Shown here piece after piece: positions 8,005 through 8,914 of a stretch of 52,738 bases of DNA (position 1 is its first letter; every line of letters begins with the position of its first letter). The notes under the pieces were generated by a model, which searched no databases, was not told the origin of the DNA, and worked only from the letters and a program-made list of their open reading frames with translations. The stretch comes from an uncultured Gammaproteobacteria bacterium. Lineage in GTDB: Bacteria > Patescibacteriota > Microgenomatia > Daviesbacterales > UBA10151. The stretch covers positions 41,387 to 94,124 of the forward strand of contig CAZYPW010000005.1 in the NCBI GenBank assembly GCA_964649615.1, given 5' to 3'. The position numbers and the translations under genes were made by a program.

Positions 8005-8080
8005 AAGTTTAAAGTGTAAAATGCAAAGTGTAAAATAACAAGGTAAATATTAAAAATTTTGATTTTTGATTTTTGATTTA
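8005..8080. repeat. Heptamer-repeat palindrome upstream of atpF
   Basis: aagtttaaagtgtaaaatgcaaagtgtaaaat ... aattttgatttttgatttttgattt. Confidence 0.8.
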
Positions 8081-8914
8081 TAGCCTTATAATGAGTATTG
8101 AGGCCACTATTCCAATCAATCCAGTTACCACTAGCAAGACAATATTAATAATCATAGATAGTTGAATGGCTGATTTAGCTAATGGATTTCTGCCTAAGGC
8201 TTCCACACTTTTGGCAATAGAACGAGAAAAAGCCAGCAGGCCAAAAGTAAAGGTCAAAAGTATAATTAGTCCTGCTGCAATATATCTAACTACGGCTCCC
8301 AATTGTTTTGGATCTCTGACATTTTCCAAAAAAGAGTTCCCCACAAAGCCAAAAAGCCTGCCAGCAAATCTGGGGTTAGTTAGTTCAGCATACTCAATCT
8401 TTAAAGCTATCTTAATGGTGCCTGAAGAGACATTGCCGTTTGGCCCAGCCACTTGTTGATCACTCCCTTCAAAATTTTCTAAAGCCACCCCTAGAACATA
8501 ACCTGATTCTGAAGCTTTTGCCCCCTTGCCTTTAATAGAAGAAGAAGTGATATAGTCTCCAGTTTTGATAGAACCATTTAAGGTGGTCACATTAACTTGA
8601 GCAATCCCATCTCTAATTACTGGTTTACCTTCTTTTTCAAAATCTCTGTAAACTAAAATTGGTTTTTCATCTAGCACTCCAAACATTTTATTGTCAAAAC
8701 TAAGTTCAGATCTAACCAAGCCATTTTCTGTGACAGTTAAAATATCTCCAGAAACTGCTTCAGTGTCAGAAATAGTGTAGGTAGAAGTAATTTCTATGCC
8801 TTTAGGAGCCTGGGCGGAAACAGTAATGAGTTGGTAGTTGGTAGTTGGTAGTAAAGTAAATAAAACCAAAAAAACTATCAACTTTGAACTAATAACTAAT
8901 AACTTATTACCCAT
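8078..8914 (-). CDS. Membrane protein with an extracytoplasmic domain and a C-terminal subunit-c-like hairpin
   Basis: Signal/TM N-terminus; [29 protein letters not shown]-terminal [19 protein letters not shown] 8914 preferred over TTG 8950. Confidence 0.75.
8829..8903. repeat. In-frame heptamer palindrome in the N-terminus of the 8078-8914 gene
   Basis: agttggtagttggtagttggtagt ... actatcaactttgaactaataactaataact. Confidence 0.75.

Follow-up and report, generated by a model that had tools for sequence, protein, structure and literature searches.

A subunit c homologue without an ion-binding residue, fused to a beta-tulip ectodomain, in the operon of a second F1-like ATPase of Patescibacteria

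Introduction

In F-ATPases, the polar loop of subunit c docks gamma-epsilon and an acidic residue in helix 2 binds the ion. The locus described here raises the question what an F1-type ATPase might do if the gene in the position of subunit c encodes a hairpin with this loop, without the acid and with an additional domain at its N-terminal side. It lies in a stretch of 52,738 nucleotides of contig CAZYPW010000005.1 (positions 41,387 to 94,124), here called the window. An initial annotation, made from the DNA sequence alone, described a subunit-c-like hairpin without ion-binding carboxylate directly upstream of atpF, in an operon lacking atpE, and considered a repurposed rotor or an ATP-driven surface machine. 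That last proposal is still the best reading of the locus, although it remains indirect: as the proton channel is lost and the rotor is fused to an outward-facing domain of fibre or adhesin type, this second ATPase, present beside a normal one, probably burns ATP to move or build surface structures and does not make ATP.

Domain structure of the c-fusion protein

The gene, named c-fusion gene in the following, encodes 278 aa; a start at an alternative upstream TTG at position 8950 would extend the product to 290 aa. Its features and those of the neighbouring genes are listed in Table 1. Hydropathy analysis revealed three hydrophobic segments (residues 5-23, 212-230 and 258-276). At the end of the predicted signal peptide (residues 34-35), Ala is kept in 125 and Gln in 113 of the 139 aligned representatives. 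The AlphaFold2 model based on this 139-row alignment (pLDDT 91) shows an N-terminal helix, an all-beta domain (about residues 40-176), an amphipathic helix and a helical hairpin (residues 202-277) with its turn at the RNP motif. Uncorrected pN/pS values of 0.17 for the hairpin and 0.37 for the ectodomain indicate purifying selection on the gene. A complex prediction with four copies (residues 37-278) scored 0.17 against a mark of 0.42 with the controls not folded, and speaks neither for nor against an assembly.

Named close relatives belong to Ca. Daviesbacteria, and the neighbours in the ESM Atlas are CPR clusters, some of them labelled as Saccharimonadia. When longer fusions were sought with the hairpin profile, the best 120 of 496 matches were all close Daviesbacteria-type relatives.

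Table 1. Features of the c-fusion gene and its operon (positions in the window)
Feature	Position	Strand	Remark
c-fusion gene, 278 aa	8078..8914	-	signal peptide, beta-tulip ectodomain, amphipathic helix, ion-blind subunit-c hairpin
Predicted cleavable signal peptide, aa 1-34	8813..8914	-	cleavage presumed
Ectodomain, aa 38-176	8387..8803	-	fold of phi29 gp12 C-terminal autochaperone (D4) and phage cement proteins
Amphipathic helix, aa 184-199	8318..8365	-	between ectodomain and hairpin
Subunit-c-like hairpin, about aa 205-278	8081..8302	-	profile and structure comparison
RNP loop of hairpin	8183-8191	-	R242-N243-P244
Val262	8129-8131	-	in place of ion-binding Glu
b-like gene, 228 aa	7304..7990	-	one N-terminal TM and long coiled coil; b homology suggestive only
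delta/OSCP homologue, 158 aa	6824..7300	-	
alpha	5371..6822	-	arginine finger kept, N-terminus shortened
Inserted four-helix-bundle gene	5000..5380	-	not part of machine; missing here in 19/19 close loci covering the site
gamma	4110..4949	-	full length
beta	2677..4050	-	Walker A, catalytic Glu-Arg and Walker B intact
epsilon, 93 aa	2314..2595	-	beta-sandwich only, without C-terminal helices
4,298-aa membrane-anchored fibre-like gene, 5' part	1..2110	-	continues to G000:C5:30600

The hairpin is a homologue of subunit c

The hairpin of the c-fusion protein is a true homologue of subunit c, with a likeness beyond chance. Compared alone with the Pfam family ATP-synt_C (PF00137), the c-fusion sequence reaches 16 bits (E 0.015; cut-off 24). 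When the profile of the 139-row family was compared with the PDB, solved c subunits ranked as the top 9 of 11 matches (best E 9e-5). The modelled hairpin superposes on c subunits with Z 9-10 and rmsd 1.6-2.6 A, the best match having Z 10.1 and rmsd 1.6 A over 75 residues. Furthermore, a profile built from 20 ion-blind hairpins alone recovers short canonical c genes across the phylum, and three relatives fused to immunoglobulin-like (Ig) domains exceed the Pfam cut-off with 29.1, 32.2 and 25.0 bits. When an Ig-type hairpin was folded from its sequence alone (pLDDT 72), the Foldseek list was headed by c subunits, none of them at E 0.001. The profile ranking and the superposition thus bear out the proposed hairpin, and the structural likeness to c subunits, which the initial annotation had suggested as a check, was found.

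The hairpin has the two helices and the R-[NQ]-P polar loop of the subunit c superfamily. The loop spans 12 residues (236-247), and RNP is invariant in 139/139 representatives and 40/40 genome copies. The absence of an ion-binding acid from helix 2 is confirmed as well: the canonical Glu site, 20 residues past the loop Arg, is occupied by Val262, and helix 2 contains no Asp or Glu. At R+19/R+20, counted from the loop Arg, an acid occurs in none of the 139 representatives, 40 genome copies and 120 close relatives, whereas all 20 canonical CPR c genes that remained after removal of a spurious antisense ORF have one. Stray acids are found elsewhere in the membrane span, in helix 2 of 1/139 representatives and 2/40 genome copies and in helix 1 of 2/139 and 2/40. 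The fusion hairpins therefore lack the Glu or Asp in the middle of helix 2 of ion-translocating F1Fo enzymes. Most of the glycines for c-ring packing are lost from helix 1 of the tulip type, which has on average 1.9 Gly and 3.5 aromatic residues compared to 6.0 Gly in the Ig type. From the invariant loop only, we infer that the hairpins form a homo-oligomeric ring which docks gamma-epsilon and rotates.

The ectodomain has the fold of a phage fibre chaperone

Among 48,161 chains, the best structural match of the ectodomain is a C-terminal fragment of phi29 gp12 (3gqh; Z 13.0, rmsd 2.4 A, 112 residues); phage cement proteins come next, with Z 9-12. Foldseek results are weakly concordant, and all Pfam matches on the 139 ectodomain-family rows are weak (Peptidase_G2 in 3/139, two cement families in 36/139 and 13/139). 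The earlier comparison of the middle part with autoproteolytic chaperones of fibre proteins was hence right in kind, since the gp12 fragment is such an autochaperone. In the available part of its description, the D4 region of gp12 consists of tandem beta-tulips and acts as autochaperone for trimerisation; beta-tulips, which are found in capsid decoration proteins as well, are mostly trimeric interaction modules (10.1101/216911). The ectodomain shows the same tandem beta-tulip fold as D4 and Peptidase_G2. In contrast to D4, which is located at the C-terminus of a fibre and carries an autocleavage Glu, it is N-terminal, membrane-tethered and cellular, and no Glu is conserved at the equivalent column. 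The first D4-like copy in the giant protein encoded next to the operon starts with Asp-x-Ala-Glu, a start not retained in the c-fusion ectodomain; in gp12, this Glu is catalytic.

The operon encodes a second F1

The genes of the operon are arranged in the order c-fusion, b-like, delta, alpha, inserted gene, gamma, beta and epsilon, followed by the 4,298-aa gene, all on the minus strand. The catalytic alpha/beta motifs, gamma, epsilon and delta of F1Fo ATP synthase are all present. Only 6 residues precede the barrel of the window alpha, compared to 24 in the canonical alpha. Among the second operons, all 32 betas have intact catalytic motifs, all 32 alphas have the arginine finger, and every operon seen keeps full-length gamma and the epsilon sandwich. 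Delta was identified as OSCP in 19/26 members and with E 8e-12 in the PDB. The single-contig genome G239 has neither b-like nor delta alongside the operon and no delta match genome-wide. The inserted four-helix-bundle gene is located between alpha and gamma in the window and between gamma and beta in locus L081.

The statement that the c-fusion gene lies upstream of atpF in an operon without atpE is confirmed with qualifications. Neither atpE nor atpB is present in the window operon, but the supposed atpF is b-like by position, its one TM and the coiled coil, and homology to b is suggestive: its profile matches b with E 1e-7, while apolipoproteins score higher, and ATP-synt_B of Pfam was found in 2/30. 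No stator anchor is evident from the hydropathy of the b-like protein, which has one TM and few outer residues, and no wall-binding stator was found in the b-like proteins examined. Subunit a is absent from the operon across 60 loci, and no conserved extra membrane gene was seen in the a-less operons among the close and distant loci inspected.

A complete canonical operon with atpB and a Glu-bearing atpE is located on contig C6 of the same genome and holds the only subunit a of this genome. The window operon is a second ATPase next to a normal ATP synthase. In the canonical operon (G000:C6:69009-72741), about 3.8 kb of unrelated genes part epsilon from beta.

Conservation of the locus and the giant neighbour gene

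Of 20 close loci, 19 share the operon of the window, and the remaining one is cut off by a contig end. Each conserved close operon is followed by a gene matching the giant, with only 207 aa in one case. Within 40 distant loci, selected as full-length matches, alpha lies within 4.5 kb in 31, the other 9 are not beside F1 genes, and neither subunit a nor canonical c was seen in any of them. The conserved linkage to atp genes, the other check named in the initial annotation, is thus observed. A giant Gly/Ser/Thr/Ala/Asn-rich gene is at most 1.2 kb away in 20/40 distant loci; the 1.1 Mb of the window genome contain three such ORFs. Several loci from records titled "uncultured Gammaproteobacteria" (L005-L007, L011-L014, L017, L020 and L022) are 61-71% identical to and syntenic with Daviesbacteria, so these titles are probably mislabels.

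The giant protein consists of a MerR HTH, one TM, kelch repeats, an intein, a dockerin and two D4-like units near the C-terminus (residues 3617-3747 and 3848-3974). Two of its segments are matched by the c-fusion ectodomain (tblastn E 8e-13 and 3e-9). The intein (G000:C5, about residues 2,580-2,950) carries DUF3800 where a homing endonuclease is usual. In locus L064 (G192:C1, from about 179,200, plus strand), the a-less operon is immediately followed by an open frame of 11,716 aa that contains a D4-like unit.

Giants that carry D4 are also common among genomes lacking the motor. In 20/43 genomes with the tulip fusion there is no second D4 match at E 1e-8, and several of the adjacent giants have no D4. 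An obligate docking of the rotor tulip on the tulip of the giant is weakened by these observations.

Distribution among Patescibacteria and exchange of ectodomains

For the distribution of the system, 301 Patescibacteria genomes with at least 80% completeness were surveyed, in which related genomes are not independent, so that a Fisher test on co-occurrence is not used; the unpublished genome G150 enters the background counts only. The hairpin profile matched 45/301 genomes, two of them via a short canonical c, which leaves 43 with a tulip fusion. The system is retained in 25 families. Subunit a was found in 159/301 genomes. All 27 fusion genomes with a have two betas. Of the 16 without F-type a, 15 have exactly one beta and one (G030) none, so that 42/43 possess one beta beyond what an ordinary ATP synthase accounts for. 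In G030, the fusion gene is an orphan with a diverged loop (G030:C5, L208), and no beta match was found in the genome. G086 and G165 have two tulip-fusion copies each and only one extra beta.

No other c/K gene was found in 14 of the 16 a-less fusion genomes, whereas the other two have a V/A-type K. V-type a is present in one of five a-less genomes tested and absent from two single-contig genomes without other c/K. Since these 14 of 43 fusion genomes have no other a or c, their annotated "ATP synthase" is probably an ATP consumer, and the energy metabolism of CPR bacteria would have to be reread accordingly.

As a control, two or more betas were found in 14 of 134 other beta-bearing genomes. 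Three of the 14 have two a genes, and nine have the same ion-blind hairpin, either fused to Ig or NHL domains unrelated to the tulip or cut at a contig end just before b. The second betas of G010 and G254 are canonical-like and located at contig ends. The ion-blind hairpin forms the C-terminus of Ig-chain proteins of 629, 629, 674, 760 and at least 1,685 aa, one of them frameshifted, of NHL-propeller proteins of 507 aa and, in a one-beta genome without a, 497 aa, and of NHL-plus-Ig proteins of 2,571 and 2,589 aa; the tulip type has about 270 aa. As the fusion gene is not beside F1 genes in three genomes of the Ig/NHL type, the pairing there is a presumed one. In total, 53/301 genomes have such an ion-blind hairpin.

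In locus L206 (G005:C8:18,700-22,500), a third F1 pair in beta-alpha order lies beside genes of 900 and 188 aa, with no gamma or hairpin detected. An ABC ATPase and permease pair, by eye MacB/FtsX-like, is located between the giant hairpin fusion and b-like in L130, L134 and L135 (G078, G005 and G009).

Proposed mechanism and alternatives

The window ATPase is very probably an ion-uncoupled ATP consumer. All moving parts of F1 and an unvarying F1-facing loop are retained, nothing is left of the ion path, and the outer face bears an exchangeable domain led by a signal peptide. We favour, with moderate confidence, a second F1 motor which is uncoupled from ions and whose rotation performs mechanical work on structures outside the cell, at its surface. 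Alpha3-beta3 would hydrolyse cytoplasmic ATP and turn gamma-epsilon, the foot of which would dock on the RNP loops of the ring of c-derived hairpins. Without subunit a and carboxylate no ion would be moved, and the ring would act as a shaft across the membrane carrying the exchangeable outer domain. In the tulip type, this domain would be a membrane-tethered relative of the chaperone that helps phage fibres to trimerise. It would probably act on the giant membrane-anchored fibre encoded by the adjacent gene, which might be twisted, assembled, released or turned; the tulip domain may be a tethered, reusable aid for trimerisation or twisting or an adaptor that turns the fibre. In other lineages, Ig chains or NHL propellers would sit directly on the ring. 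The adjacent giant is probably the client, but the link is loose, since giants with D4 also occur without the motor.

The alternatives differ in what they do with the rotor. One is a non-rotary anchor or export gate, with a c-derived oligomer that only tethers the F1-like ATPase or opens as a widened pore. ATP would then serve to export, unfold or release giant surface proteins, a role generally proposed for F1-like and FliI-type ATPases. This explanation would agree with the bulky helix 1 and its lost glycine motif, the missing delta in G239, the tight linkage of giant exported proteins to the operon and the short alpha N-terminus, a trait reported in the available text for the mycoplasma Type 3 alpha (PMC12994834). 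However, every operon seen keeps full-length gamma and the epsilon sandwich, which would take up the axis, the RNP loop does not vary, and Ig-type hairpins retain the glycine motif yet bear up to 2,500 aa outside, so that we regard this explanation as unlikely. Just as little weight is given to a rotary appendage for surface motility or host engagement, a sub-case of the mechanical-work motor with motility as output, in which the ring spins adhesin stalks against host or substrate and the tulip serves as fibre adaptor: no wall-binding stator was found in the b-like proteins examined, and the distribution is patchy, 53 of the 301 genomes.

That the enzyme continues to pump ions, by way of a channel partner that escaped recognition, with a borrowed a or in rings mixed with canonical c, appears very improbable. 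The canonical operon is indeed also present in 27/43 genomes, a polar residue is conserved at R+15 (Asn in 116/139), and Glu occurs at R+14 in 2/40 and in helix 1 in 2/40 copies. Against this, 16/43 genomes lack F-type a, 14 of these also any other c, the membrane span has no conserved acid or base, and no conserved extra membrane gene was seen in the operons inspected. A decaying duplicate of the ATP synthase operon is largely refuted and hardly credible by now; long beta branches and frameshifts in the single loci L140 and L016 would fit decay, but the motifs are intact, the loop is invariant, selection is purifying and the system is kept in 25 families.

If the preferred torque export is true, it would be categorically new, a natural case of F1 torque leaving the cell. 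More tentatively, the system might represent an unrecognised class of rotary machine, with the c-ring as drive shaft for swappable tools, by which Patescibacteria spin, reel or rope-twist surface filaments in order to move on hosts or attach to them. It offers a testable candidate for the way in which these minimal episymbionts assemble or move their giant surface proteins. Subunit c has apparently evolved here into a shaft that transports nothing and carries interchangeable domains on its outer side, which touches on the long-standing question of the relationship between rotary ATPases and the machines for secretion and motility. As the family occurs in clusters labelled as Saccharimonadia, it may become accessible to a genetic test.

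Comparison with known F-type ATPases

The c-fusion ATPase is real, widespread and outside every described F-ATPase type; it is a variant of repurposed F1-like ATPases. With F-type subunit c (AtpE, PF00137) it shares the hairpin fold, the RNP loop and the location of both ends outside, and with the F1Fo operon the gene position of c before b or its b-like counterpart, delta, alpha, gamma, beta and epsilon. It differs by the missing ion-binding carboxylate and subunit a, the added signal peptide and ectodomain, an epsilon without C-terminal helices and the shortened N-terminus of alpha.

The F1-like X0 ATPases of mycoplasmas (Type 2 and Type 3) are a functional precedent. According to the available text of two reports, they are likewise extra ATPases beside a normal one in reduced, host-dependent genomes, lack a recognisable Fo channel and are linked to surface functions, and the Type 3 alpha has a short N-terminus like the window alpha; in contrast to the c homologue, b-like and delta described here, the membrane proteins of the mycoplasma enzymes are unlike any known protein, and b is missing from Type 3 (PMC3369863; PMC12994834). 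Scores for the NCBIfam Type 2/3 families (MSC_0618/0619 and MMOB1660/1670) are far below the cut-off (383/570 and 337/850). X0 proteins with 3 and 12 TM helices were not found in the window operon, whose only membrane proteins are the hairpin fusion with 2 TM and the b-like protein with 1 TM. N-ATPases are also encoded by second F-type operons. They keep a and c and start with beta (beta-epsilon-Q-R-a-c-b-alpha-gamma), whereas the order in the window is different and a is absent; NCBIfam alt_F1F0 scores are below the cut-off (417/752 and 398/750).

The system was not found described in literature searches, in which subscription journals were thinly covered; such operons may already be shown in Supplementary Fig. 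S3 of 10.64898/2026.10.01.756066. The available text of PMC6744442 has no "ATP synthase" passage.

Phylogeny of the beta subunits

Beta trees were calculated with FastTree for 78 rows, with IQ-TREE for 48 of these and with UFBoot support for 46 rows, leaving out two long mycoplasma branches. In all three trees, the a-less CPR betas never intermix with canonical CPR betas. The tulip-type betas form one clade with the nested Ig type of 629-674 aa (UFBoot 99). The ectodomain types are hence not monophyletic on the beta tree, which is consistent with domain exchange. All a-less CPR betas group together with weak support (UFBoot 70) and join the N-ATPases at 98, possibly as a long-branch effect. 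A sister relationship with the second betas of mycoplasmas appears in the 48-row IQ-TREE and not in the 78-row FastTree; it is unstable and not claimed here. An alpha-rooted beta tree was dismissed, as its root is located on an unreliable long branch. In the loci L126-L128, L132 and L133, the betas comprise 646-764 aa with long Pro/Ala/Thr-rich extensions, and the b-like proteins reach up to 517 aa.
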